Source: an uncultured Prolixibacteraceae bacterium (GTDB lineage: Bacteria; Bacteroidota; Bacteroidia; Bacteroidales; FEN-979). Taken from it: a stretch of DNA of 64,000 bases. A program made the position numbers and the translations under genes. The DNA lies in contig CAYVVG010000012.1 in the NCBI GenBank assembly GCA_964455285.1, positions 672 through 64,671 of the forward strand. The letters are read 5' to 3'. A model generated the notes under the pieces. It did no database searches, was not told where the DNA came from, and was given only the letters and a program-made list of their open reading frames with translations. Shown here one piece after another: positions 578-46,429 of this stretch; the stretch's first letter is position 1, and every line of letters begins with the position of its first letter.

Positions 578-2980
578 TTGACGACCCTCATCGATCTCCG
601 GCAAGGTGAAACCGGCATTATCCTGAAAGTCAAAGGCAGGGGTGCTTTCCGTAAAAGGATCACGGAAATGGGTTTTGTCAGCGGGCGGCAGGTAACCGTG
701 ATCAAAGCCGCACCGCTGCAGGATCCTGTCGAATACCGCATCATCGGGTACCACCTGTCGCTGCGGCGGAGTGAAGCTGCCCTGATCGAAGTGGAGCCAG
801 TGTCGGCTGCGAATCCTGAGGCAGGGAGCAGGCCAATGCTTTTTGACTACCGGGGAACCATCCGGGAAGAGACCCCTCGCACGGAGACGGGCGACCGGGG
901 GAAGACCATCGAGGTGGCGCTGGTCGGCAATCCGAACTGCGGAAAGACCACGCTGTTCAACATTGCTTCAGGCTCCCATGAACGTGTGGGCAATTTCAGC
1001 GGCGTCACGGTCGATTCGAAAGATGCCGTGTTCCGGCAGAAAGGGTACACCTTCAACCTGACCGACCTCCCCGGAACCTATTCTCTGACTGCTTATACCC
1101 CCGAAGAGATCTTCGTCAGGCAACATATTACCGACCGGGTGCCCGATATCGTAGTGAACGTGGTGGACGGGTCGAACCTGGAGAGGAACCTTTACCTGAC
1201 CACCCAGCTCATTGACATGGACATCAGGGTGGTGATCGCCCTGAATATGTACGACGAGTTCCTGGAAAGCGGGAACCGGATCGACCATGAAGCGTTGGGA
1301 AAACTCCTGGGCATCCCGGTCATTCCGACAGTCAGCTCGAAAGGGACCGGCATTTCAGAGCTTTTCGACCGGATCATCGAGGTATTCGAGGACCGCGATC
1401 CGGTGGTGAGACATGTCCATATCAACTATGGCACCGAACTGGAACGATCCATCCTTAAGATCCAGGAAGCCATCCGCCTTGACCAGCCGCTCACCGACAG
1501 GATCTCGTCGCGGTTTTACAGCATAAAATTGCTGGAAAAGGATGCCTCCGTACTCGAATCGCTCCGTTCATCACCCTTTTGCGGAGAGATCAGCAGCGCG
1601 GCGGAAAGAGAGATCCAGCGGCTGGAGAATATCTTCCACGACGATTCGGCCACCCTGACGACCGATGCGAAATACGGCTTTGTCTCCGGGGCTTTGCGGG
1701 AAACCATGCGAACCACACGTCCCGAAGGTCCTTCCCGCTCGGTCAGTGACCGGATCGACGGCATACTGACACACCGGATCCTCGGATTCCCGGTCTTCAT
1801 CCTCTTCCTGTGGATCATGTTCCAGTCGACCTTCACTTTCGGGGAATATCCCAAGGAGTGGATTTCCGCCGGCGTCGCGTGGATCGGTTCCGGCACCGAC
1901 ACGCTTCTTCCGGCCGGACCGTTCAGGGACCTGATGGTGGACGGGATCATCAACGGGGTGGGCAGCGTGATCGTATTTCTGCCCAACATCCTGATCCTGT
2001 TCCTGTTCATCTCGCTGATGGAGGATTCGGGATACATGGCACGCGCCGCGTTCATCATGGACAAGCTCATGCATAAAATGGGGCTCCACGGCCAGTCGTT
2101 CATTCCGCTCATCATGGGATTCGGCTGCAATGTTCCCGCCATCATGGTGACCCGGACGCTGAAGGACCGCAACGACCGGCTGCTGACCATGCTGATCAAC
2201 CCTTTCATGTCGTGCAGTGCGCGACTTCCGGTGTACATCCTGATCGCCGGTGCGGTATTTCCCGACATTGCGGGGACTGTCATCTTCGGGCTATATATAA
2301 CCGGCATCCTCCTGGCTATTATCATATCCCTGATCTTCAAAAAGTTGCTGTTTAAAAGCCGGGAGGCGCCATTTGTCATGGAACTGCCCCCTTACCGCAT
2401 GCCTACCCTCCATGTGATCTTCCGGCACATGTGGGAGAAAGGCCGGCAATACCTGAATAAAATGGGAGGTGTGATCCTGATCGCGGTGATCCTGATCTGG
2501 GCGTTGGAATATTTTCCCGGTGGCAGCAATCTCAGCTGGGAAGATCGCTTGCAGAAATCGTACATCGCCCGGCTAGGGCATTTTATCGAACCGGTGATCG
2601 CCCCGCTGGGTTTTGACTGGCGAATGGGTGTGAGCCTGATCACGGGTGCCGCGGCCAAGGAGGTAGTGGTAAGCACGATGGGCGTCCTTTTCGGGAAAGA
2701 TCACTTTCATCACCAGGAAACCCACGAATCCCTAGGAGAACAGCTTCGCGGAGCCACATACGGAGCCGGGAAAAACCAGGGTGAACGGCTTTTCACCCCC
2801 CTTGTGGGCGTTTCATTCCTCCTGTTCATACTGATCTACATGCCCTGCATCGCTGTTGTGGCAACGGTAAACCGTGAATCAGGCAGCTGGAAATGGGCTC
2901 TGTTCCTGATCACCTATACGACGCTGCTGGCATGGATCCTGTCGTTCCTGGTTTACCAGGTCGGCTCCTTAATACTATGA
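578..2980 (+). CDS. feoB: Ferrous iron transporter, FeoA-FeoB fusion
   Basis: N-terminal FeoA SH3-like domain (RITEMGF...APLQDPVEY), G1 GNPNCGKTT, DLPGTYSL, gate motifs GFGCNVPA and MSCSARLP, multiple TM helices. TTG start. Confidence 0.95.
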   Translation: MTTLIDLRQGETGIILKVKGRGAFRKRITEMGFVSGRQVTVIKAAPLQDPVEYRIIGYHLSLRRSEAALIEVEPVSAANPEAGSRPMLFDYRGTIREETPRTETGDRGKTIEVALVGNPNCGKTTLFNIASGSHERVGNFSGVTVDSKDAVFRQKGYTFNLTDLPGTYSLTAYTPEEIFVRQHITDRVPDIVVNVVDGSNLERNLYLTTQLIDMDIRVVIALNMYDEFLESGNRIDHEALGKLLGIPVIPTVSSKGTGISELFDRIIEVFEDRDPVVRHVHINYGTELERSILKIQEAIRLDQPLTDRISSRFYSIKLLEKDASVLESLRSSPFCGEISSAAEREIQRLENIFHDDSATLTTDAKYGFVSGALRETMRTTRPEGPSRSVSDRIDGILTHRILGFPVFILFLWIMFQSTFTFGEYPKEWISAGVAWIGSGTDTLLPAGPFRDLMVDGIINGVGSVIVFLPNILILFLFISLMEDSGYMARAAFIMDKLMHKMGLHGQSFIPLIMGFGCNVPAIMVTRTLKDRNDRLLTMLINPFMSCSARLPVYILIAGAVFPDIAGTVIFGLYITGILLAIIISLIFKKLLFKSREAPFVMELPPYRMPTLHVIFRHMWEKGRQYLNKMGGVILIAVILIWALEYFPGGSNLSWEDRLQKSYIARLGHFIEPVIAPLGFDWRMGVSLITGAAAKEVVVSTMGVLFGKDHFHHQETHESLGEQLRGATYGAGKNQGERLFTPLVGVSFLLFILIYMPCIAVVATVNRESGSWKWALFLITYTTLLAWILSFLVYQVGSLIL

Positions 2981-2984
2981 AAAT

Positions 2985-3146
2985 ATGGACTGGCAAATGA
3001 TTCTTGTTCTGATCGTCGTTGCAACGGCCGCCTTTTCGACCGTACGGCGCATGGTGCAGTTTTTCCGCACCCCGGCCTCACGCTGTGACGGCTGCCACGG
3101 TTGTGCGCTGAAGAACAGCGGAAAGCCACCTTTTTCCTACCTTTGA
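2985..3146 (+). CDS. FeoB-associated Cys-rich small membrane protein (53 aa; not in the ORF track)
   Basis: Hand translation: MDWQMILVLIVVATAAFSTVRRMVQFFRTPASRCDGCHGCALKNSGKPPFSYL. One TM helix plus CxxCxxC, starting 4 bp after the feoB stop. Confidence 0.8.
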   Translation: MDWQMILVLIVVATAAFSTVRRMVQFFRTPASRCDGCHGCALKNSGKPPFSYL

Positions 3147-3164
3147 CAGATCAAATCCCTCCTC

Positions 3165-3974
3165 ATGGAAAACGGAATTTGCCTGCAAAGCATAATCCCT
3201 GTCCGGTCGTCCGGTTCGCACCGGGCTGAAATGGTGTCACAACTCCTCTTTGGCGAGTTGTACACGATCACGGACCGGGAAGAGGGATGGATGAAGATCC
3301 GTTGTTTTCACGACGGGTACGAGGGATGGATCCATGAATTGCAGGCGTTCCCACTCGACGACGAGGAATTCAGTCGCCTGGCACAGGCATTTACCCCCGT
3401 CACCCTCGACCTGGTGCAACTCCTGTCGGATGAATCGGGGCATACGCTGATTCCTCTTTTGCTGGGAAGCTCCCTTCCCGGACTGGATGGGCCGGATCTT
3501 CGCATCGGGTCCAACCGCTATTTTTTCGAAGGACAGGTTTCGGAACAATCCGTCATGTCATTGAGCGGTCAGTCTGTCGCATCCGGCACTCCGGGAGGGC
3601 AATTGATCAGCGATGCCATGCTGTACCTGAATGCCCCTTACCTGTGGGGAGGACGTTCGCCGTTTGGCCTGGATTGTTCGGGATTCACCCAGATGGTTTA
3701 CAAGCTTCACGGCATCACGCTGGCGAGAGATGCCTCCCAGCAGGCCGGCATGGGAGAGGGGGTGGCGTGGATCGCCGAGGCGGAAGCCGGGGATCTGGCG
3801 TTCTTCGAAAACCCGGATGGGGAGATCATCCATGTCGGAATGCTCACCAGCCGAAGCACCATCATCCATTGTTCCGGGAAGGTCAGGATCGATCCACTCG
3901 ATCACCAGGGAATTTTCAGCGAATCACAGCAACGTTACACCCACAACCTAAGGCTGATACGGAGGATCCTCTGA
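3165..3974 (+). CDS. NlpC/P60 (C40) peptidase with N-terminal SH3-like domain
   Basis: APYLWGGRSPFGLDCSGF catalytic Cys motif, HVG His motif, N-terminal SQLLFGE. TACCTTTG promoter box at 3138-3145. Confidence 0.9.
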   Translation: MENGICLQSIIPVRSSGSHRAEMVSQLLFGELYTITDREEGWMKIRCFHDGYEGWIHELQAFPLDDEEFSRLAQAFTPVTLDLVQLLSDESGHTLIPLLLGSSLPGLDGPDLRIGSNRYFFEGQVSEQSVMSLSGQSVASGTPGGQLISDAMLYLNAPYLWGGRSPFGLDCSGFTQMVYKLHGITLARDASQQAGMGEGVAWIAEAEAGDLAFFENPDGEIIHVGMLTSRSTIIHCSGKVRIDPLDHQGIFSESQQRYTHNLRLIRRIL

Positions 3975-3991
3975 TCCCGTCCCCGGCACGT

Positions 3992-4654
3992 CTACTCTTT
4001 TTTACGTTCAACCCGGGGTTGGTTGAATACCCAGATCAGGCGTACGGTGATCACATTGTTGTACTGGTAGCGTGTTTCGGGCTGCTGGTAGGGTACCGTA
4101 TAATTCACCAGCACTTTCCGAAAGTTCTTCAAGGTATACTGGTATCGCAGGTTCGCCCACAACTTGCTCCAGATCCGCACCTTCAGGTCGGCGATCACGG
4201 CGAACTCATTGTTCGATATATTGTTCTGGTACTGGTAGATGCTGTCGTAGAAACTGTTCCTGGTCTCCTTGTAATTGATCAGCCGTCCGTAGGAAAAACC
4301 GATCCCCCCCGCGATCAGGTTTTTGTCAGTATAGTGTATCACCACCGGGATCTCGGCATAATCCAGGTTCATGCGGAAGGTGGTCGAATCTGCATCTCCC
4401 CCGTGGTAGCTTCCTTTCTGGGTGTAGAGCAACTCCATGCTGGCCGACCATTGCCGTTTCGTTCCGAACGGGACTGTCACCATCGGTCCGATGTTGAGCC
4501 CCGCTTTATGGTATCCGTAGTATTCATCACCGTCAACCTGGGTCAGGTTCATGCCGGCACTTACCGCTCCCAGGATACGCTGTGCCGGCACGCTGCCGGA
4601 CTGAAGCATCAGAACCAGCAGGATTGAAAATGAGAGAGATCTATAGCAGCGCAT
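3992..4654 (-). CDS. Outer-membrane beta-barrel protein (PorT-like/OMP beta-barrel family)
   Basis: Signal peptide ending before QR, AGMNLTQVDGD motif, alternating beta-strand pattern, terminal RLIWVFN strand. Confidence 0.7.
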   Translation of the reverse strand: MRCYRSLSFSILLVLMLQSGSVPAQRILGAVSAGMNLTQVDGDEYYGYHKAGLNIGPMVTVPFGTKRQWSASMELLYTQKGSYHGGDADSTTFRMNLDYAEIPVVIHYTDKNLIAGGIGFSYGRLINYKETRNSFYDSIYQYQNNISNNEFAVIADLKVRIWSKLWANLRYQYTLKNFRKVLVNYTVPYQQPETRYQYNNVITVRLIWVFNQPRVERKKE

Positions 4655-4686
4655 GCACCCCCGGAATAGGAACGATAGTTTAACGG

Positions 4687-6840
4687 TTAATTGCCGGTCT
4701 TAGTATTCCCGGTTTTCATGGTCAGTTGGATTCGCTTGCGTTCCTGGTCCACCTCCAGCACCTCCACCATGACTTTCTGATGAAGTTTCACCACATCGTT
4801 CGGGTCTCTCACGAACCGGTCGGCCAACTGGCTGATGTGCACCAGGCCGTCCTGGTGAACGCCGATATCGACAAAGACCCCGAAGTTGGTGATGTTGGTC
4901 ACGATCCCGGGCAGCTTCATTCCTGTCCGGAGATCTCCCATGGAATGTATATGCTTATCGAATTCGAACATTTCGAACTGTTCGCGGGGGTCGCGACCCG
5001 GTTTGGCAAGTTCCTGCAAGATATCCTGAAGGGTCGGGATCCCCACGGTGTCGCTGACAAAATCCTCCAGGCGGATCAATGACCGGAGTTCCTGCCGTCC
5101 GATCAGATCATCGACCGTGCAGTTCAGTTTTGCGGCCATGCGGGAAACTACCGGGTAACTTTCGGGGTGGACCGCGCTCCGGTCGAGAGGATTCTCTGCA
5201 TCGCGTATCCGCAGAAAACCTGCCGCCTGTTCAAAAGCCTTATCGCCGAAACGGGTCACCTTTTTCAACCCTGCCCGGGACCGGAAAGGTCCGTTCTTAT
5301 TCCGGTAATCGATGATGTTCCTGGCCAGCGCGGGTCCAAGCCCCGAAACATAGGTCAGCAGCTCCTCGCTGGCTGTATTGACTTCCACTCCCACTTTGTT
5401 GACACAGCTCATCACCGTATCATCGAGGCTTTTCGACAAGCCGGCCGGGTCCACATCATGCTGGTACTGCCCCACTCCGATCGACTTCGGGTCGATCTTG
5501 ACCAGTTCGGCAAGCGGGTCCATCAGCCGGCGGCCGATCGACACCGCCCCCCTTACCGTGACATCATAGTCGGGGAATTCCTTCCGGGCCACAGCCGAAG
5601 CAGAATAAACGGAAGCCCCGCTTTCGTTCACCACCAGGGCGATCACATCGCGGTCGAAAGCGACCGCCCGTATCAGTCGCTCGGTCTCCCTCCCCGCGGT
5701 CCCGTTGCCGATGGCAATAGCATCGATCTTGTATGCGTTGACCAGGCTTTTTATCTTATGGATCGACTCCCTGACCTCATTCTGAGGGGGGTGGGGATAG
5801 ATGGTCTCATTATGAACAAGCTTTCCCTGCCGGTCGAGGCAAACCACTTTGCAGCCGGTCCGGAAGCCGGGATCGATCGCCAGTACATTCTTCTGACCGA
5901 GCGGCGGAGCCAGCAGAAGTTGCCGGAGATTCTCCACAAAGACCCGGATGGCTTCCTGGTCGGCTCTTTCCTTGGCCCACTGCCGCATTTCCGTTTCCAT
6001 CGAAGGGAATAACAGACGTTTGCAGCTGTCACGGATCGCCTCCTTCACGATGCCGGAAGAGGCATTGCTGCCCCGAACGAAAATACGGTCAAGGATTCCG
6101 AAAGCCACTGTTTCGTCCACCCCGACCGACATGCGGAGATATCCCTCGTTCTCGCCCCGGAACATGGCCAGCAGCCGGTGCGACGGGGCTTTGGACAGGG
6201 GTTCGTGATAATCAAAATACATCTTGAAATTGATTCCATCCTGTTCCTTCCCTTTTACCACCTTGACAGCAACTTCCGATTCGCGCTGGAACAGTGTGCG
6301 GATGCGTTTCCTGGCAGGCACATCCTCGTTAACGGTCTCGGCGATGATATCGGCAGCACCCCGGATCGCCTCATCGGCCGTAGGTACACCCTTTTCAGTA
6401 TCCACGAACTTCATGGCATGGGTCTTCAAATCATGATATTGCTGCGACAGGATCAGCCGGGCCAGTGGCTCCAGCCCCTTTTCACGGGCAATGCTGGCGC
6501 GGGTCCTCCTCTTCGGGCGGTAAGGAAGATAAATATCCTCCAGTTCCGACAGCGTCGCCGCCCCCATGACGGCCGCTTCCAGTTCGGGTGTCAGCTTCTC
6601 CTGCTCCCTCAACGAGTTTAGGACCGATTCGCGCCGGGCGTCCAGTTCCTTCAGGCGGATCAGCCGGTCGCGCACATGCATGATGGCAACCTCGTCCATC
6701 GAACCGGTCATCTCTTTTCGGTACCGGGCAATGAAAGGAACTGTCGCCCCTCCTTCAAGAAGGTTGATCACATTCAGGACAAAGCCCTTATTCTGATTTA
6801 TTTCGGCTGCAATGATGCCGGCATATTTTTCACTGATCAT
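4687..6840 (-). CDS. tex: Tex family RNA-binding transcriptional accessory protein
   Basis: GATVPFIARYRKE, YqgF/RNase H-like DPGFRTGCK, IGVGQYQHDV, HhH region, C-terminal S1 domain (FGVFVDIGVHQDGLVHISQL). Confidence 0.95.
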   Translation of the reverse strand: MISEKYAGIIAAEINQNKGFVLNVINLLEGGATVPFIARYRKEMTGSMDEVAIMHVRDRLIRLKELDARRESVLNSLREQEKLTPELEAAVMGAATLSELEDIYLPYRPKRRTRASIAREKGLEPLARLILSQQYHDLKTHAMKFVDTEKGVPTADEAIRGAADIIAETVNEDVPARKRIRTLFQRESEVAVKVVKGKEQDGINFKMYFDYHEPLSKAPSHRLLAMFRGENEGYLRMSVGVDETVAFGILDRIFVRGSNASSGIVKEAIRDSCKRLLFPSMETEMRQWAKERADQEAIRVFVENLRQLLLAPPLGQKNVLAIDPGFRTGCKVVCLDRQGKLVHNETIYPHPPQNEVRESIHKIKSLVNAYKIDAIAIGNGTAGRETERLIRAVAFDRDVIALVVNESGASVYSASAVARKEFPDYDVTVRGAVSIGRRLMDPLAELVKIDPKSIGVGQYQHDVDPAGLSKSLDDTVMSCVNKVGVEVNTASEELLTYVSGLGPALARNIIDYRNKNGPFRSRAGLKKVTRFGDKAFEQAAGFLRIRDAENPLDRSAVHPESYPVVSRMAAKLNCTVDDLIGRQELRSLIRLEDFVSDTVGIPTLQDILQELAKPGRDPREQFEMFEFDKHIHSMGDLRTGMKLPGIVTNITNFGVFVDIGVHQDGLVHISQLADRFVRDPNDVVKLHQKVMVEVLEVDQERKRIQLTMKTGNTKTGN

Positions 6841-8828
6841 TGTACAATGTTCACAACACCTTTAAATACCACGTCCCCACTGGTGATGATATCCTGTCCC
6901 GGAAAACTGATCTTGACCACCCAGATGTAACTTTCCGGAGGACACACCTGTCCTCCCGCTTTGCCGTCCCACCCTTTATCCACATCATCCGATTCAAAGA
7001 CCATCTGCCCCCACCGGTCAAAGATCACCATGCTGAAGTTAATGTTACGGTACAAGCCGTTGACGCGGAACACATCGTTCAGCCCGTCGCCGTTGGGAGA
7101 AAAAGCATTAGGGATAAAATACTCGAAAACTTTTACATACGTTGTGTCGGAATGGGTGCAGCAATAAACGTCTTTCACCCTGGCCCAGTACGATCCCTGG
7201 GTCCCCGCCACAATGGTGGATGCGGCAGAACCCGTTGACCAGAGGTACTCCGGGAAACCCTCGCCCGCATGGAGGGTAATGGTTGAGCCTGTGTACAGCA
7301 ATACGGTATCCTCCAGTGTTATGAAGGGTTTCGGATGACTGACCACCCTGACGGAGTCGGTAAAAGACTGACCTTCATAAGTCAGGGTGAGTCTTACTGT
7401 ATACTGCCCGGGTGTTGAAAAAGGATGCATGGGATCCGGAAGGGACGAGGTGGCACCATCGCCAAAATCCCACGAAACTGCATCGATGTTCGCCGGATTG
7501 GTAATGCGGAACCGTGTGACATCCCCTTCGCAAACACTGTCCCAGGTGAAGGGAGGGAGATAGAGGTAGCTCTGCACCAGGTTCGGCAGGCTGTAAATGC
7601 TCTTTCTCCCCAGCAAATCGAAGCGCACTCCCGGATTATGGTCCAGCCTGTTGAGATTACAGGCCGATCCCGGCCGGTCGGGGTTGTAGATCACCTCGAG
7701 GGAATCTCTCTTTATCTTGAGATTGTTGGTCCGGCTGATGTATATCCGGCCGTCGGGGGCCAGTTGCAGGGCGTTCCACCGAACATTGGCAGCCGAATCG
7801 ATGATGACGGGGTTCGTCAGCCCGTTGTTCAGGTCGAACTGGTAAAGACAGGTTGGCTTCTTTGGGACCGTTCCTCCCAGGTAATCAAGAACGGAAGCAT
7901 ACAACATCCGTCCGCTGGGAGAAAATTCGATCCCGTAAGGATGGATATCCGGTTTGTTCACCACGTAGCTCCGCGGGTTGGATACCCGGCCGGTCTCATT
8001 GTCGAAATCGAACAGTTCGATCCGCTTGTCGTAGGTAATCGACAACGCCAGCCTGGTCCCGTCGGGAGAGCACTTCATGTATCCTACCATGTTGTTGCGA
8101 GCCAGCTTGGTGGATGCGGAATGGCGGGTTCCGACCGCGCTTACGGTCGAGTCGACGATTCCCGATCCGGTGACCAGGTAAGCATGGAATTCGTCGGACT
8201 CCCACTTATGGGCGATGACCCAGATGCCGGTCTTGCTGTGGTTGGCCACTGCAGTCAGTTTCTGGCAGGAAGGGGTGACCAGGGGCAAATTGAGAACGGA
8301 TGATACGGCATCGCCGAGCCCGTTCCGCTCCCGCATGTCGATGATGGAGTACCGGAGTCCCTGGGTCGTGTATTTCGTTGAGTCGAGCAGATCATACCGG
8401 ACCATGTCGACCGTAAAAACCATGTACTGCGATTCCTCCCTGCCCATCGGCACGATGAGGCAGGGCTGGGTGACTCCCGGATCGCCCGCCAGCCCGGTCC
8501 CGTTCGGCATCGGAGAGAACGTCGTATCCCAAACGACCTTTCCGTTCGTAAAAAAACGGAAATTGCCCACGCTGTCGCAAACCGAGGCCGTCGCCTGGAA
8601 AGCGTTCATCAGATTCCCGTCGGCTAACGGAACTGCTTGCCCGCTCCTGAAATCGATGCCCGCCTTTTCGCCGAAGTACCATACCATGGCCTGTTTCTGC
8701 GAGCGGGGGCAATTGCTCCGGGTCCATGTTCCCTGGGCTGCGGCGGGTGCGGCCGGGATCAGGAACGCTAAGCAAGTTAGGACCAGGGCGGTGTAGGCCG
8801 GCAACCGGTATTTTTGCTTGGAAGACAC
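6837..8828 (-). CDS. Secreted beta-propeller/PKD protein with T9SS type B (gliding-motility-associated) C-terminal domain
   Basis: Signal peptide, WYFGEKAGIDF start, propeller-like repeats (SPDG, FSPSG), PKD motif WDFGDG, CTD IPNAFSPNGDGLNDVF...FDRWG...WDG. Confidence 0.85.
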   Translation of the reverse strand: MSSKQKYRLPAYTALVLTCLAFLIPAAPAAAQGTWTRSNCPRSQKQAMVWYFGEKAGIDFRSGQAVPLADGNLMNAFQATASVCDSVGNFRFFTNGKVVWDTTFSPMPNGTGLAGDPGVTQPCLIVPMGREESQYMVFTVDMVRYDLLDSTKYTTQGLRYSIIDMRERNGLGDAVSSVLNLPLVTPSCQKLTAVANHSKTGIWVIAHKWESDEFHAYLVTGSGIVDSTVSAVGTRHSASTKLARNNMVGYMKCSPDGTRLALSITYDKRIELFDFDNETGRVSNPRSYVVNKPDIHPYGIEFSPSGRMLYASVLDYLGGTVPKKPTCLYQFDLNNGLTNPVIIDSAANVRWNALQLAPDGRIYISRTNNLKIKRDSLEVIYNPDRPGSACNLNRLDHNPGVRFDLLGRKSIYSLPNLVQSYLYLPPFTWDSVCEGDVTRFRITNPANIDAVSWDFGDGATSSLPDPMHPFSTPGQYTVRLTLTYEGQSFTDSVRVVSHPKPFITLEDTVLLYTGSTITLHAGEGFPEYLWSTGSAASTIVAGTQGSYWARVKDVYCCTHSDTTYVKVFEYFIPNAFSPNGDGLNDVFRVNGLYRNINFSMVIFDRWGQMVFESDDVDKGWDGKAGGQVCPPESYIWVVKISFPGQDIITSGDVVFKGVVNIVQ

Positions 8829-41147: not shown

Positions 41148-42542
41148 TCATCGGTTGTTGAGGATATCCTTGAAATCGTTCAGTATCTTTCTTGCCAGGT
41201 TGTCGGCCTTGGCCGGCATATCGCTTTCCGCGTAAATGCGGATGATGGGCTCGGTGTTTGAACGTCGCAGGTGCACCCATTCGTCGCCGAAATGGATCTT
41301 GATCCCGTCGATGGTCGTGATGGGATGTTTTTGATACTTTTCGACGATCGCGGCCAGGATACCGTCGATGTCCAGGCCCACCGGGAACTCGATCTTGTTT
41401 TTCGAGATGTGAAAATCGGGGTATTGTTGCCGCAGCAGCGAGCATTTTTTCCCGGATCCCGCCAGGTACGACAGGAACAGGGCAATGCCGGCCAGGGCAT
41501 CGCGGCCGTAATGAAGCCGGGGATAAATGACTCCGCCGTTGCCTTCGCCGCCGATCACGGCCCCGGTCTCCTTCATCATCTGCACCACATTCACTTCGCC
41601 GACGGCCGATGCGGCATAATTTCCGCCCTTACGCTCGGTCACAATTTTCAGCGCCTGGCTCGACGAAAGGTTGGAAACCGTATTTCCGGGTTCATGCTGC
41701 AGCACGTAGTCGGCCACGGCCACCAGGGTATATTCTTCGCCGAATGGCTCGCCCGTTTCGGTAATGATGGCCAGCCGGTCCACATCGGGATCAACCACGA
41801 ACCCGAGATCAGCGTTGTTGTCGGTGACATGTTTGCAGATCTCGCCAAGGTGTTCCGGGAGCGGCTCGGGATTGTGGGGGAAGTGACCGGTGGGTTCGCA
41901 GTACAGGCAGTCGATCGTATTCACCTGCAATGCCCTGAGCAACTCGGGCACCGCAATTCCGCCGGTGCTGTTCACGGCGTCGACTGCAACGCGGAGGCGT
42001 GCACGCCGGATCGATTCGGGATCGACCAGGGGAAGGGCGAGGATCTGTTCGATGTGCTTCCTGATCCAGGTGTTGTCATAGGTACAGGATCCCAGGTCGG
42101 CAACCGGCGCATATGAGTACGCACCTTCGGCGGCCAGCGCAAGGACCCGCTCGCCGTCGGCACCTGAGAGGAATTCGCCCCGGTCGTTCAGGAGTTTCAG
42201 GGCGTTCCAGTTTTTGGGGTTGTGGCTGGCAGTAAGAATGATACCGCCAGAGGCCCGCTCCCCGATCACCGCGATCTCTGCCGTCGGGGTGGTGGTCAGG
42301 CCGATATCGACCACATCGGCACCCATTCCCAACAGGGTCCCGATCACCACATGGTTGACCATGGTCCCGGAGATGCGTGCATCGCGGCCCACCACAAAGC
42401 GAAGCCTTCCTTCAGGCCGGGTTTCGCGAATGAACGCAGCGAACGCCGAGGTGAACCTGACCAGGTCGGCCGGGGTCAGGCCTTCTCCCGGCAATCCTCC
42501 GATGGTCCCGCGGATGCCCGATATGGATTTTATCAGCGTCAT
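41148..42542 (-). CDS. glmM: Phosphoglucosamine mutase
   Basis: True start is MTLIKSISGIRG (42542). TASHNP, DPDVDR, GGEGNGG, RRSNTEP. Confidence 0.92.
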   Translation of the reverse strand: MTLIKSISGIRGTIGGLPGEGLTPADLVRFTSAFAAFIRETRPEGRLRFVVGRDARISGTMVNHVVIGTLLGMGADVVDIGLTTTPTAEIAVIGERASGGIILTASHNPKNWNALKLLNDRGEFLSGADGERVLALAAEGAYSYAPVADLGSCTYDNTWIRKHIEQILALPLVDPESIRRARLRVAVDAVNSTGGIAVPELLRALQVNTIDCLYCEPTGHFPHNPEPLPEHLGEICKHVTDNNADLGFVVDPDVDRLAIITETGEPFGEEYTLVAVADYVLQHEPGNTVSNLSSSQALKIVTERKGGNYAASAVGEVNVVQMMKETGAVIGGEGNGGVIYPRLHYGRDALAGIALFLSYLAGSGKKCSLLRQQYPDFHISKNKIEFPVGLDIDGILAAIVEKYQKHPITTIDGIKIHFGDEWVHLRRSNTEPIIRIYAESDMPAKADNLARKILNDFKDILNNR

Positions 42543-42620
42543 GGCCGATTTTAGCGCAAATGTATAAGAATTCCGGATAGGCGGTATTTGTTTTTTTCGT
42601 AAGTTTGCAGAAATCTCCTG

Positions 42621-44027
42621 ATGGAAGAACCGTTTGATCCTTATTTTGACGGCGAAACGCTGTCGCTGGTCGGGCGCTATGAACAGATGCTCCGGGAGGA
42701 CCGGCATCTGTTTTTCGATGTGGATGAGTTCGAGGAGATCATCGAATATTACTTTTACCGGAACGAGCAGCGCAAAGCCTACCTGACGATCCGTCGTGCG
42801 CTGGAACAGCATCCCGGAGCTCCTTCCGTCATGTTCAAGCTGGCCCAGTATTACATCAATGTCAAGCGCGACCGGGAAGCACTGCGTATCCTGAAGGAGA
42901 CGGAACCGGCCACGCCCCACGACAGCGACCTCTTCATCGCCCGCGGCAACCTCTTCAGCCAGCTGGAAAAACCCGAAAAAGCGATCGGTGAATATACCCG
43001 GGCGCTCGAAGGCGCCGACCACCCCGACGAGCTTCATTCGAGCATCGCCTTCGAATACGAGAATATGGGAAAATATGACAAGGCCATCGAGCACCTGCTC
43101 CTGGCCCTTGAAGCGAATCCCGACAACGACCCGGCGCTTTATGAATATGCTTTCTGCTGTGAAGTATCCCAGCAGACCGCGCAGGGCATCGAGTACCTGA
43201 ACGGTTTTCTCGACCGGAATCCCTATTCGGTGGCCGCCTGGTTCAACCTGGGCATTGCCTACAGCAACATCGACCTGTACGAAAAAGCGATCGAAGCCTA
43301 CGACTTCGTACTTGCGATCGACGAGACATTCTCTTCGGCATATTTCAACAAGGCAAACTGTTACGCCAACATAGCGGAGTACGGAAAAGCGATCGAGACA
43401 TACCGGGAGACCCTCTTTTATGAAGAGGCCGAACCGGTGACCCATTATTACATTGCCGAATGTTACGAAAAGCTGAGGGATTTCGAGCCCGCCATCGGGT
43501 CTTATCGCAAAGCCGTCGAACTCGACCCTGAGTTTGCCGATGCCTGGATGGGACTGGGTGTGTGTTATGACGAGTCGGGACGACACCAGGAGGCCCTTCC
43601 CTTTATCCAGAAAGCCATCCGTCTCACCCCGACGATCCCGGAATACTGGTTTATCCAGGGAGACATCCAGATCAAGCTGGGCGAGACCGACGAGGGGATC
43701 CGTTCCTACCGGAAGGTGATCGAACTCGACCCGGAGGATGTTGATATCTGGCTCGACCTGTCGATCGTATATGCCGACCGGAAAGAGTTCGACGAGGGGT
43801 TCCGGGTTCTCGAGGAGGGATTGCAACACCACCGCGACCATCCCGACTATTATTACGGCATGGCCTATTACCTCTACGTGATGGGTAGAAAACAGGAAGG
43901 CGAAGAGTATCTGCTGAAGGCGCTGGAAATGGACTATGAGGGGCACCAGCGCCTGTTCAAGACCTTTCCCGAAGCCCGCAACCATCCCGGCATTACGGCC
44001 GCCATCGGTTCCTACAGGATTTCCTAA
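42621..44027 (+). CDS. Tetratricopeptide repeat protein
   Basis: Serial TPRs (AWFNLGIAYSNIDLYEKAIEAY etc.). TAAGTTTG at 42600-42607. Confidence 0.9.
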   Translation: MEEPFDPYFDGETLSLVGRYEQMLREDRHLFFDVDEFEEIIEYYFYRNEQRKAYLTIRRALEQHPGAPSVMFKLAQYYINVKRDREALRILKETEPATPHDSDLFIARGNLFSQLEKPEKAIGEYTRALEGADHPDELHSSIAFEYENMGKYDKAIEHLLLALEANPDNDPALYEYAFCCEVSQQTAQGIEYLNGFLDRNPYSVAAWFNLGIAYSNIDLYEKAIEAYDFVLAIDETFSSAYFNKANCYANIAEYGKAIETYRETLFYEEAEPVTHYYIAECYEKLRDFEPAIGSYRKAVELDPEFADAWMGLGVCYDESGRHQEALPFIQKAIRLTPTIPEYWFIQGDIQIKLGETDEGIRSYRKVIELDPEDVDIWLDLSIVYADRKEFDEGFRVLEEGLQHHRDHPDYYYGMAYYLYVMGRKQEGEEYLLKALEMDYEGHQRLFKTFPEARNHPGITAAIGSYRIS

Positions 44028-44044: not shown

Positions 44045-44833
44045 ATGACTCAGATCACAATGCCCTACCTGCCTGACCGCACCGTCAAACCCCGGCAAAA
44101 CGGCATCGCCATGGTCATGGACAAAGGCCTCAGCATCCGCGAGGCGGAAGATTTCGTCGAAGCAGCCGGGCACCTGGCCGATTTTGTCAAACTCGGCTTC
44201 GGGACCTCGATGGTGATGAATGGCGTGAAGGAAAAGGTGAATATCTACCGGCAGGCCGGGATCCGGGTCTATGTGGGCGGCACGCTCTTCGAAGCTTTTG
44301 TGGTACGCAACCGGTTTGACGATTACCTCCGGTACATCGATGAACTGGGACTCGACACGGTCGAGGTGTCGGATGGCTCGATGGTCATGGACCACGATAT
44401 CAAATGCGGATTCATCAACAAGCTGGCGAAGAATTACACGGTGCTTTCCGAAGTCGGCTCCAAAGAATCGGGCATCATCATCGCCCCGGGCCGCTGGATC
44501 GAAATGATGCAGAAAGAACTCCAGGCCGGGGCGCTCAAAGTGATCGGCGAAGCCAGGGAGAGCGGGAACGTCGGGATCTACCGGGCAACCGGAAAAGCCC
44601 ATGTTCAATTGATCCACAAGATCTTATCCAAGGTACAGGCGGACAAGATCCTCTGGGAAGCCCCACTGAAAACCCAGCAGGTATGGTTCATCAAGAACTT
44701 CGGCGCCAATGTGAACCTGGGCAATATTGCCCCGGCGGAACTGATCCCCCTGGAAACCCTGCGGCTGGGACTGCGCGGCGATACCTTTTTCAGTTTCCTC
44801 CCGGCGAAAATGAAGAAACAACAGCCGAAATAG
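44045..44833 (+). CDS. Phosphosulfolactate synthase (ComA) family protein
   Basis: MVMDKGL, KLGFGT, VEVSDG, SEVGSK, EARESG, WEAP, NVNLGN, LETLRLGLRGDT. Confidence 0.88.
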   Translation: MTQITMPYLPDRTVKPRQNGIAMVMDKGLSIREAEDFVEAAGHLADFVKLGFGTSMVMNGVKEKVNIYRQAGIRVYVGGTLFEAFVVRNRFDDYLRYIDELGLDTVEVSDGSMVMDHDIKCGFINKLAKNYTVLSEVGSKESGIIIAPGRWIEMMQKELQAGALKVIGEARESGNVGIYRATGKAHVQLIHKILSKVQADKILWEAPLKTQQVWFIKNFGANVNLGNIAPAELIPLETLRLGLRGDTFFSFLPAKMKKQQPK

Positions 44834-44851
44834 CGAAAAAAACTATCACAG

Positions 44852-45592
44852 ATGATTTTTGGGTTGATCGGGTTTCCGCTGGAGCATTCCCGGTCGCCGG
44901 AATGGTTCCATGCGAAATTCCGGGAAACCGGCCGCCGTCATGACGAATACCGGCTCTTCCCGCTCCCATCGCTGACCGGTTTTCATGACCTGCTGCACGA
45001 GCATCCTTCACTGGCGGGCCTCAATGTCACCATTCCCCACAAGATCACCATCCTTCCACAGCTTGATGCAGTCGATGAAACGGCCAGGGCCGTCGGTGCC
45101 GTAAATACGATCCTCATCCGAAGGATGGGAAACATCGTTCACACGACCGGCTACAACACCGACGCACCCGCCTTTTTATCCTCGCTGGAGGGATTGCCGG
45201 TAAGGGGACCCGCCCTCATCCTGGGAAACGGTGGCGCATCACGGGCCGTGGCATATGCCCTGACCCTGAAACAGATCCCTTTTCACATCGTCACCCGTCA
45301 CGCCGGTGCCGGGATCTCCTTCGCGACCCTCACTGCGAAGATCCTCAGGGAACACCCTTTCATCATCAACACCACACCGCTGGGTATGCATCCGGGTACA
45401 GCGGAGTGCCCGCCTCTTCCCTATGATGGCCTCACCCCCGGCCACCTGCTGTACGACCTTGTTTACAACCCTGAACAAACCCTCTTCATGAAACAAGGGC
45501 ATGCCCGGGGAGCCGCCACCGTCAACGGCATGGCCATGTTGCACCTGCAGGCGGAGCTGGCTTACCGCCTCTTTACGGTTGAATACTTTTAG
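44852..45592 (+). CDS. aroE: Shikimate dehydrogenase
   Basis: [47 protein letters not shown]. Confidence 0.93.
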
Positions 45593-45636
45593 CTATTTTC
45601 ATACGTTCCTGTTTGGCAAGTATCCGCCATTTCTCT

Positions 45637-45644
45637 TATTTTTG
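45637..45644 (+). promoter_or_regulatory. Bacteroidota -7 promoter box (TATTTTTG) for the cytochrome operon
   Basis: Matches TAnnTTTG about 40 bp upstream of ATG 45687. Confidence 0.5.
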
Positions 45645-45686: not shown

Positions 45687-46418
45687 ATGACCCGACCCAC
45701 TTATATCACGTACATATGCCTTCTGGTCATCCTCGTGGCAGCCTCCCTGCTCTTTCTTACGCTGAACGGATGGACATATTACCACCTGGGGCTGGAGGAA
45801 CGTGCCTTTCATCCCGATTACCTGTCGCTGAAGCCCAGCGGCCCCTGGGGCCACGGGCTGGGGATCGCCGGCTCGTTGTGCATGCTCGCCGGAGTGGGTT
45901 CCTACATGGCACGGAAACGGGTACGATCGCTGTCGCGGCTTGGGATCTTACGCCACTGGCTCGAATTTCACATTTTTCTGTGCACCCTGGGACCCATCCT
46001 GGTACTGTTCCACACCTCGTTCAAATTCGGCGGACTGGTATCGGTCAGTTTCTGGAGCATGGTGGCGGTTTTCCTCAGTGGTATAGCAGGCCGGTTCATA
46101 TACATCCAGATACCCAGGACAATTGAAGGACGGGAGATGAGCCTGCAGGAAGTCAGGACGGTAAAGGACGACCTGGAACGGCAGATCCGTGAAAGGGAGA
46201 CGGCCGGCGCCGGGACGGGAACGGCCGGCGACCGCGAGTTCCGGCGGATGGTAAAGCGAGACCGGATCCTGTCGCGACGGATCGCCCGGCTGACTGCCAT
46301 GCAGAACCTGTTCCGCTACTGGCATGTCGCCCATCTTCCCTTTGCCATTGTAATGCTGATCATCATGATCATTCATGTCGGTGTGACCATCCTGTTCGGC
46401 TACCGATGGATCTTTTAA
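45687..46418 (+). CDS. Polytopic inner-membrane protein with ferric-reductase-like paired histidines (putative diheme cytochrome b)
   Basis: About 5 TM helices, with two intramembrane His pairs 14 residues apart ([16 protein letters not shown]; [16 protein letters not shown]). Confidence 0.7.
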
Positions 46419-46429
46419 TCCTGCAGGCC

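Follow-up and report, generated by a model that had tools for sequence, protein, structure and literature searches.

A putative five-helix di-heme b cytochrome and its ferredoxin-flavoprotein partner as a candidate inner-membrane entry of a multiheme cytochrome conduit in Bacteroidota

Background

Known bacterial extracellular electron transfer routes enter the envelope via quinol dehydrogenases. CymA, ImcH and CbcL, the inner-membrane entries of porin-cytochrome routes, use the quinone pool and carry mostly c-type hemes. A different arrangement is found in MsrQ, a member of the ferric-reductase family, whose electrons come from Fre, a separate NAD(P)H flavoprotein, and go on to MsrP; in E. 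coli it is annotated as a membrane-bound flavocytochrome and adjoins the periplasmic MsrP. Here we describe a cluster of five genes from an uncultured Prolixibacteraceae bacterium (Bacteroidota), found in a 64,000-nucleotide stretch of contig CAYVVG010000012.1 that we call the window. The cluster encodes a small inner-membrane protein, a ferredoxin-flavoprotein, two multiheme cytochromes c and a secreted, putatively barrel-forming protein. The reading that we favour, with moderate confidence, is that the membrane protein is a five-helix di-heme b cytochrome of the inner membrane which, together with the flavoprotein, carries out NAD(P)H-driven, quinone-independent export of electrons to the cell exterior.

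The inner-membrane proteins (IMPs) of the PCC3 and PCC4 systems were described as a class by He et al. 2017 (PMC5566968): proteins of ~300 aa with five helices, of which 3 and 5 carry the motif W-x3-H-x13-H and helix 4 carries SGxxG. The same paper noted that the class resembles cytochrome b as well as the FRE/NOX ferric-reductase domain, and it predicted that two b hemes are bound. The periplasmic cytochrome of PCC3 has 21-27 hemes and the extracellular one 10-35, the latter being variable in heme number (PMC10734462). PCC3 was still termed functionally unverified in papers of 2023 and 2025. The window protein fits every motif of the IMP class. The membrane module and the ferric-reductase comparison are not new, both having been published in 2017 (PMC5566968). 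What appears to be unreported in the searchable literature is the constant ferredoxin-flavoprotein partner, which would point to NAD(P)H rather than quinol; our literature search found no description of the flavoprotein and membrane-protein module in Bacteroidota or Calditrichota.

The membrane protein and its histidine pairs

A first-pass annotation of the window had placed the membrane-protein gene at 45687-46418 and had pointed to two transmembrane helices, each with a pair of histidines 14 residues apart. Both statements hold. The start is the ATG at 45687, the same Met begins all 14 homologs aligned, and the gene occupies 243 codons of a longer mechanical open reading frame (ORF) that runs from 45501. 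The pairs are H95/H109 and H216/H230, as quoted there. The annotation had also named conservation of the four histidines as a check, and for this we used a diverse set of 91 full-length representatives of the membrane protein with 30-56% identity. H95 is present in 90 of the 91, and H109, H216 and H230 are each present in all of them; the four are invariant also in the 16 most divergent members. A conserved tryptophan, which had gone unremarked, precedes each main pair to give W-x3-H-x13-H (W212 in 91/91, W91 in at least 90%). On helix 4, G135 is invariant, and S131 and G132 are kept in at least 90% of the set. Two or more H-x13-H pairs would arise by chance with P = 0.027 (200,000 shuffles of the membrane protein), which is only mildly unusual when taken alone; conservation is the stronger test for the histidine pairs. 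The family is large: close homologs number more than 7,600, and at 50% identity (E <= 1e-3) its members fall into 3,273 clusters.

Hydropathy gives hydrophobic segments at residues ~3-32, 90-143 and 208-243. The AlphaFold2 model built from the 91-sequence alignment (pLDDT 93.4, pTM 0.85) has helices at 3-32, 53-78, 88-109, 116-140 and 179-236, with a cytoplasmic hairpin at 153-172. Taken together, these give five transmembrane helices, and both main histidine pairs lie within hydrophobic segments, on the modelled helices 88-109 and 179-236. An earlier AlphaFold2 model from 23 close homologs (pLDDT 73) was uninformative in Foldseek and has been superseded. Basic residues cluster in loops 76-90 and 139-208, so by the positive-inside rule the N-terminus is cytoplasmic and the C-terminus, 13 residues past H230, lies outside. 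On this predicted topology, helices 3 and 5 would run parallel, both from cytoplasm to periplasm. H95 and H216 would then sit ~6-7 residues above the cytoplasmic boundary, with H109 and H230 14 residues further out, that is, at matched depths. Fourteen residues span ~21 Å along a helix, roughly the heme-heme spacing in cytochrome b and NOX.

Further support for this arrangement comes from patterns within the family. Conserved positions of helix 3 recur every ~3.6 residues (W91, L92, H95, I96, G/C99, G102, P103 and H109), a periodicity that implies one buried face. Mean-field direct-coupling analysis (DCA) of 635 sequences (Neff 355) gives sensible antiparallel registers for the helix pairs 1-2, 2-3 and 3-4, and places contacts between helices 3 and 5 at F97-Y211, C99-L217 and L105-I235. 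Being independent of AlphaFold2, the DCA lends separate support to a compact bundle in which the two histidine-bearing helices are predicted to be parallel neighbours.

Two other aspects of the protein may be mentioned here. A third H-x13-H pair, also absent from the first-pass annotation, is formed by H42 in a periplasmic loop (codon 45810-45812) and H56 at the outer end of helix 2 (codon 45852-45854). It is invariant in close Bacteroidota relatives and is found in only 50 (H42) and 60 (H56) of the 91 diverse members. DCA couples H56 and G57 to F237 and R240 at the outer end of helix 5, and the site might serve for docking, or as an extra ligand site, facing the periplasmic cytochrome. The other aspect is length: the window protein has 243 aa, compared with 289 aa in most homologs. 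The charged cytoplasmic hairpin that joins helices 4 and 5 is shorter by about 46 residues in it and in a few relatives (window ~46200-46230, residues ~172-182), and the length of this hairpin is the most variable part of the family.

Family placement

The first-pass annotation called the gene a NOX/ferric-reductase-like module, and suggested searches against Ferric_reduct and MsrQ. Part of that description stands. The two histidine pairs share with the Ferric_reduct/NOX/MsrQ group both the 13-14-residue spacing and the placement on helices 3 and 5, their predicted depths match, and some relatives match Ferric_reduct weakly. Membership by the family definitions does not stand: the protein has five helices where Ferric_reduct/NOX/MsrQ and DUF4405 have six, and it has no match to Ferric_reduct even at E <= 1. 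In Pfam, its sole match is DUF4405, on helix 5, at E = 0.09 and 13.7 bits (gathering score 26.7); in NCBIfam there is none.

The relatives are more informative. We scanned the 91 diverse sequences one by one against Pfam, with matches below threshold unless stated otherwise. DUF4405 (PF14358) is matched by 45 of them (best E 5.7e-6), Ferric_reduct (PF01794) by 20 (best E 1.5e-4), Ni_hydr_CYTB (PF01292) by 15 (best E 2.7e-4) and PepSY_TM by 2 (best E 2.1e-3), while any further family is matched by at most 2. Nearly all the weak matches are thus to four families whose members bind heme b through transmembrane histidines. Those to Ferric_reduct span profile positions 1-60, corresponding to helices 2-3 of the membrane protein, and those to DUF4405 and Ni_hydr_CYTB span helix 5 and occasionally helix 3. 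Two relatives exceed the gathering score of DUF4405 (P0324 with 28.0 bits, P0367 with 30.1 bits). For Ferric_reduct the best relative reaches 22.2 bits against a gathering score of 28, and for Ni_hydr_CYTB 20.6 bits against 30.1, the relatives' sub-threshold matches to the latter being taken on helix 5 only.

Searches beyond Pfam add little. Neither the single protein nor the family profile found a match in sequence searches of the PDB. The structure search suggested by the first-pass annotation was made with Foldseek, using the pLDDT 93.4 model against the PDB; the best hit has E = 0.8 and none is significant. Eukaryotic cytochrome b561 appears at E = 2-4, and the top 50 hits listed include no solved NOX, STEAP or MsrQ-type structure, helical membrane bundles being hard for the method. 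Aligning the family profile with the single E. coli MsrQ sequence in hhalign gave a non-significant E = 0.15, over the helix-5 W..H...H stretch only and with a one-residue gap; the same comparison with the single E. coli YodB sequence was not significant either, single sequences being weak templates. On sequence criteria, then, the window protein is a peripheral or distant relative of the group formed by DUF4405, the ferric reductases and prokaryotic cytochrome b561, and by curated definitions it lies outside Ferric_reduct/NOX/MsrQ.

The flavoprotein partner

The gene for the flavoprotein starts 13 nt before the end of the membrane-protein gene, so that the two overlap. Its product has Pfam matches to Pyr_redox_3 (4e-38), Fer4_10 (4e-10) and Pyr_redox (7e-9), and an NCBIfam match to a YpdA-like family (1.9e-43) that is below the family's cut-off. 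The iron-sulfur (FeS) domain adjoins the membrane anchor, and a strongly basic stretch follows the anchor. All eight cysteines are used in two CxxCxxCxxxCP motifs, and the protein is therefore without a redox-active CxxC disulfide. The motifs GAGPAG, GGGDSA and YR..F.R.K are conserved in 99 orthologs. Arg or Lys at the position of the thioredoxin-reductase HRRxxxR motif, which is the 2'-phosphate position, suggests NADPH as the donor.

The domain matches assign the flavoprotein a predicted thioredoxin-reductase fold rather than an FNR fold, which agrees with the view in the first-pass annotation that the dehydrogenase half is not of the usual FNR type. The same annotation had proposed that the two genes form a split NOX-like enzyme. 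Here the pairing is borne out, in that an anchored 2x[4Fe-4S] and FAD/NAD(P) partner is kept across phyla, and the link to a curated NOX family is not. We conclude that the membrane protein probably works like a split ferric reductase or NOX.

One sequence joins the two proteins. A metagenomic ORF of 418 aa (P0194) carries residues 1-184 of the membrane family followed by the C-terminal half of the pyridine-nucleotide domain of the flavoprotein. We considered it as a true fusion and rejected it; it is without helix 5 and without the FeS domain, and is more likely a deletion or an assembly artefact.

Conservation of the cluster across genomes

The cluster is common: in a scan limited to one genome per species, a relative of the membrane protein turned up in at least 598 species-level genomes. 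For counts in Bacteroidota we used the best 80 of these together with locus L001, giving 81 loci. The 80 are all Bacteroidota metagenome-assembled genomes (MAGs), and include Lentimicrobiaceae, Prolixibacteraceae, Draconibacterium, Sunxiuqinia and Marinilabiliales. In all 81 loci the flavoprotein gene lies immediately 3' of the membrane-protein gene. The 20-heme cytochrome, the second cytochrome and the barrel gene are kept in 77, 75 and 62 loci, respectively, and flanking genes vary. Loci without cytochromes or barrel are on contigs that end early, with the exception of L052.

In this exception (L052, 8973-13749, a Bacteroidota MAG) the pair is preceded by aroE, as it is in the window, and neither cytochrome nor barrel genes follow. 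Downstream lie instead a GH2 glycosidase gene, which is on the opposite strand, and genes of the radical SAM and HlyD families. The locus is either a natural minimal pair or an assembly join.

Gene order differs elsewhere. A profile made from an 18-sequence clade was used in a metagenome scan, which extended to a distant clade with 33-41% identity on contigs of GC 0.38-0.73. There the order is membrane protein, cytochrome, cytochrome, barrel and, at the operon end, flavoprotein; Pfam labels confirm this on a Calditrichota contig (L165) and an ocean-metagenome contig (L166). In Acidobacteria the order is cytochrome, cytochrome, barrel, a 279-aa protein, membrane protein and flavoprotein. In L170 the flavoprotein gene is upstream and divergently transcribed. 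The flavoprotein accompanies the membrane-protein gene in Bacteroidota, Calditrichota, Acidobacteria and further lineages. The contigs of P0165 and P0267 are too short for full gene context. Because five components are kept through four gene orders and several phyla, we treat them as one functional unit.

Two side observations concern these loci. The inserted Acidobacterial protein of ~275 aa (L169:9165-10004, L083:1062-1883) is secreted and conserved, and has no hemes and no Pfam match. Beside the main cluster of L170, positions 1274-7824 hold the series cytochrome, cytochrome, 496-aa protein, cytochrome, with CcmE and CcmF; the conduit appears to be duplicated in that genome.

A cultured isolate, Emticicia oligotrophica DSM 17448, carries the whole cluster on its 100-kb plasmid pEMTOL02 (L168, NC_018749.1, 78197-90781), between a 1,028-aa ccsA cytochrome c biogenesis gene, which it directly follows, and the gene for a GW-domain protein. 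The membrane protein (WP_015031196) is annotated there as "hypothetical" and the flavoprotein as "NAD(P)-binding domain-containing protein". The plasmid location is a hint of horizontal mobility, and the organism is a possible experimental host.

The remaining three components can be compared across loci L001-L170. Exactly 20 CxxCH motifs occur in 101 of 109 orthologs of the first cytochrome, which is probably a periplasm-spanning wire. Orthologs of the second range from 9 to 64 CxxCH motifs and from 266 to 1,618 aa, and it is probably an outer or extracellular cytochrome. The 545-aa protein is probably an outer-membrane barrel or porin, as its sequence features suggest: it ends in ...RF in nearly all of 72 orthologs, with F545 in at least 90%, and matches to OMP_b-brl, DUF2490 and BBP2_2 are only sporadic and weak. 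It has no relative in the PDB and no family placement in Pfam or NCBIfam.

Features of the window and occurrence

Coordinates of the cluster and its motifs are collected in Table 1. The site upstream of the membrane-protein gene is promoter-like, resembling the Bacteroidetes promoter consensus (-33 TTTG / -7 TAnnTTTG). The interval 45613-45642 is also picked up by a generic sigma-70 scan, whose hit rate does not exceed that in shuffled sequence.

Table 1. Positions of the cluster genes, motifs and promoter-like site in the window
Feature	Position	Strand	Details
Promoter-like site	45611..45643	+	TTTG 45611-45614, ~21 nt spacer, TATTTTTG ~45636-45643; ~44 nt upstream of membrane-protein start
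Inner-membrane protein gene	45687..46418	+	243 aa, five helices; putative di-heme b cytochrome of PCC3/PCC4-type IMP class
Helix-3 motif W91-x3-H95-x13-H109	45957..46013	+	H95 codon 45969-45971; H109 codon 46011-46013
Helix-4 motif S131-G132-x-x-G135 (S131-G132-I-A-G135)	46077..46091	+	
Helix-5 motif W212-x3-H216-x13-H230	46320..46376	+	H216 codon 46332-46334; H230 codon 46374-46376
Flavoprotein gene	46406..47752	+	448 aa; anchor residues 8-33; 2x[4Fe-4S] ferredoxin ~58-120; thioredoxin-reductase-like FAD/NAD(P)H ~177-440
First multiheme cytochrome c gene	47765..49393	+	542 aa, signal peptide, 20 CxxCH; Pfam Cytochrome_C7 and c3
Second multiheme cytochrome c gene	49372..51099	+	575 aa, 21 CxxCH + 1 CxxxCH
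Secreted protein gene	51110..52747	+	545 aa, N-terminal signal-like segment; putative outer-membrane beta-barrel

Upstream, 44045-45592 encodes a phosphosulfolactate synthase (ComA, E = 2.6e-88) followed by a 246-aa shikimate-dehydrogenase-like gene. The latter is found upstream in only 10 of the 81 loci, and is therefore placed outside the unit. Further upstream, a 945-aa ORF on the minus strand (41148-43985) is a run-on: its C-terminal half looks phosphohexomutase-like by eye, and toward its N-terminus it overlaps a plus-strand gene (42621-44027) of TPR-repeat appearance.

Sequencing runs that hold window DNA are metagenomes of wastewater, activated sludge and sediment. In one sediment metatranscriptome, contigs without differences lie on the flavoprotein (46663-46983) and on the second cytochrome (49455-49623). 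The same metatranscriptome has a contig on the barrel gene (51918-52160) with a single difference.

Proposed mechanism and alternatives

We reason here from what is observed (motifs, conservation, predicted topology, domain content and gene association) to heme binding, complex formation, donor, direction and acceptor. The membrane protein and flavoprotein would form the cytoplasmic-membrane entry of an envelope-spanning conduit. Electrons would pass from NAD(P)H, probably NADPH, to FAD, then through two membrane-tethered [4Fe-4S] clusters to an inner heme b held nearer the cytoplasm by H95 and H216. From there they would move to an outer heme b, held nearer the periplasm by H109 and H230, and on to the 20-heme periplasmic cytochrome. 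This could then deliver them to the variable multiheme cytochrome in the outer-membrane barrel and so to an extracellular acceptor, for which Fe(III), Mn(IV), humics, an electrode or a partner cell are candidates. The quinone pool would be bypassed, and the system would serve as an electron sink or a ferric reductase, not to conserve energy. Such a sink could serve fermenters, or the same machinery could serve reductive iron acquisition in an organism such as Emticicia, which is aerobic. The inside-negative membrane potential favours outward flow, and flow inward to NAD(P)+ is uphill twice, so export is the favoured direction.

If this is true, taking electrons straight from NAD(P)H is a different inner-membrane solution from those of the known routes. 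It could account for iron and humics reduction by fermentative lineages that have no classical respiratory chain, such as Lentimicrobiaceae and Prolixibacteraceae, or for their appearance on conductive particles and anodes. A wider proposal, which we offer tentatively, is that the cluster may be a widespread NAD(P)H-driven, quinone-free, envelope-spanning reductase, a prokaryotic functional counterpart of FRE/NOX with an unrelated dehydrogenase, serving fermentative Bacteroidota, Calditrichota and Acidobacteria as a direct outlet for surplus reducing equivalents to minerals, humics, electrodes or partner cells.

Several points weigh against NAD(P)H-driven export. The potentials of ferredoxin-type clusters can be lower than that of NAD(P)H, in which case one step would run uphill. 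The window protein remains below every curated family threshold in Pfam and NCBIfam, and the Foldseek search of its model against the PDB was without a significant hit. The metatranscriptome support is sparse, with no clear match on the membrane gene, and DNA carry-over is possible. In the Calditrichota contig L165 (1-6956), genes of menaquinone-biosynthesis type lie just upstream on the opposite strand (Pfam matches UbiA, ECH_1, hydrolase, TPP enzyme, Chorismate_bind and Ubie_methyltran); these may be coincidence or a hint to a quinone-linked role. Finally, the authors of PMC5566968 proposed a quinone-reactive cytochrome b role for the IMP class, and PCC3 is present in iron oxidisers, where electrons are thought to move inward.

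The main rival follows that published PCC3 model and makes the membrane protein a quinone-linked cytochrome b, exchanging electrons with the menaquinone pool as do CymA, CbcL and the hydrogenase cytochrome b. The flavoprotein would then be an accessory that feeds the pool, or one concerned with regulation or repair. This rival draws on the role that He et al. 2017 (PMC5566968) proposed for the class as a whole, on the menaquinone genes beside the cluster in L165, and on the 15 of 91 relatives that weakly match Ni_hydr_CYTB, a quinone-reactive family. We nevertheless judge it unlikely. We identified no quinone-site motif in the protein, no such motif being general enough for a test. The flavoprotein has a membrane anchor of its own with an adjoining FeS domain, its persistence across several phyla and under four gene orders is easier to reconcile with a direct partner than with an accessory, and L052 keeps only the pair.

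The same L052, with its pair and no cytochromes, fits a supply of reducing power to the periplasm, in which the pair keeps the large cytochromes reduced or supports an MsrPQ-like repair, with the barrel separate in role. MsrQ, a membrane-bound flavocytochrome beside periplasmic MsrP, is a precedent for this. We find it quite improbable, as contigs that are long enough, except L052, all carry the 20-heme cytochrome, the second cytochrome and the barrel-like protein, and no conserved periplasmic repair enzyme was found nearby.

Inward electron uptake would turn the conduit round, with extracellular Fe(II), minerals or a cathode being oxidised and the flavoprotein reducing NAD(P)+. PCC3 does occur in iron-oxidising Gallionellaceae, and an inner-membrane component is upregulated there during iron oxidation. 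For the present cluster this is very improbable: reduction of NAD(P)+ (about -320 mV) by donors at the level of Fe(II) is strongly uphill and is opposed by the inside-negative potential as well, and the named carriers, including Prolixibacteraceae and Lentimicrobiaceae (the latter described as typically fermenters), are not known iron oxidisers. Least probable of all is that the protein binds no heme and that its conserved histidines hold another metal or line a transport path; the absence of a significant match to a curated family or solved structure would allow this, whereas W-x3-H-x13-H on two parallel helices with small residues (G/C99, G102) conserved between the histidines, weak matches to His-ligated heme-b membrane families, and a redox protein as every cluster partner all speak against it.

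Comparison with known systems

The locus resembles PCC3/PCC4 in encoding the membrane protein with a porin (here the inferred barrel), a large conserved periplasmic cytochrome and a variable extracellular cytochrome. The heme count is fixed inside and variable outside here, as it is in PCC3. PCC3/PCC4 differ in being reported in Proteobacteria, in being modelled as quinone-reactive and in being tied mostly to iron oxidation, and descriptions of PCC3 name no flavoprotein partner. In the present cluster the constant fifth component is a 2x[4Fe-4S]-FAD-NAD(P)H protein, the named hosts are Bacteroidota, Calditrichota and Acidobacteria, and the class is matched by motifs.

FRE/NOX and the bacterial NOX-like enzymes share the proposed logic, in which electrons from NADPH would reach an outside acceptor through flavin, inner heme b and outer heme b, and likewise have their histidine pairs on helices 3 and 5. 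In those proteins a six-helix domain is fused to an FNR-type dehydrogenase, whereas the module here has five helices and a separate flavoprotein, of thioredoxin-reductase fold by prediction, with two FeS clusters. Their acceptor is O2 or Fe(III) directly; in the present cluster we propose a multiheme cytochrome. E. coli MsrQ is similar as a stand-alone membrane flavocytochrome gene beside the gene of its periplasmic partner, and differs in its six helices, its partner and its acceptor.

DUF4405 is the closest Pfam signal, and both histidine helices match the same part of its model. A DUF4405 protein and the related ferrosome protein FezC have been purified and shown to bind heme b (PMC11334425). 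DUF4405 proteins have six helices and four central histidines and are tied to ApbE flavinylation systems (PMC11334425); the window protein has the four central histidines with five helices, and no ApbE or FMN-binding partner is present in the cluster in the window, L165, L166, the Acidobacteria or L170. Two-subunit complexes of the Nqr/Rnf-like kind have been proposed to carry electrons one way from cytosolic NAD(P)H to outside acceptors (PMC11334425). They are unrelated to the present module, having an NqrB/RnfD-like membrane domain, covalent FMN and no hemes. Compared with CymA, ImcH and CbcL, finally, the module described here appears to be fed by NAD(P)H, via FAD and FeS clusters, and to use b hemes.

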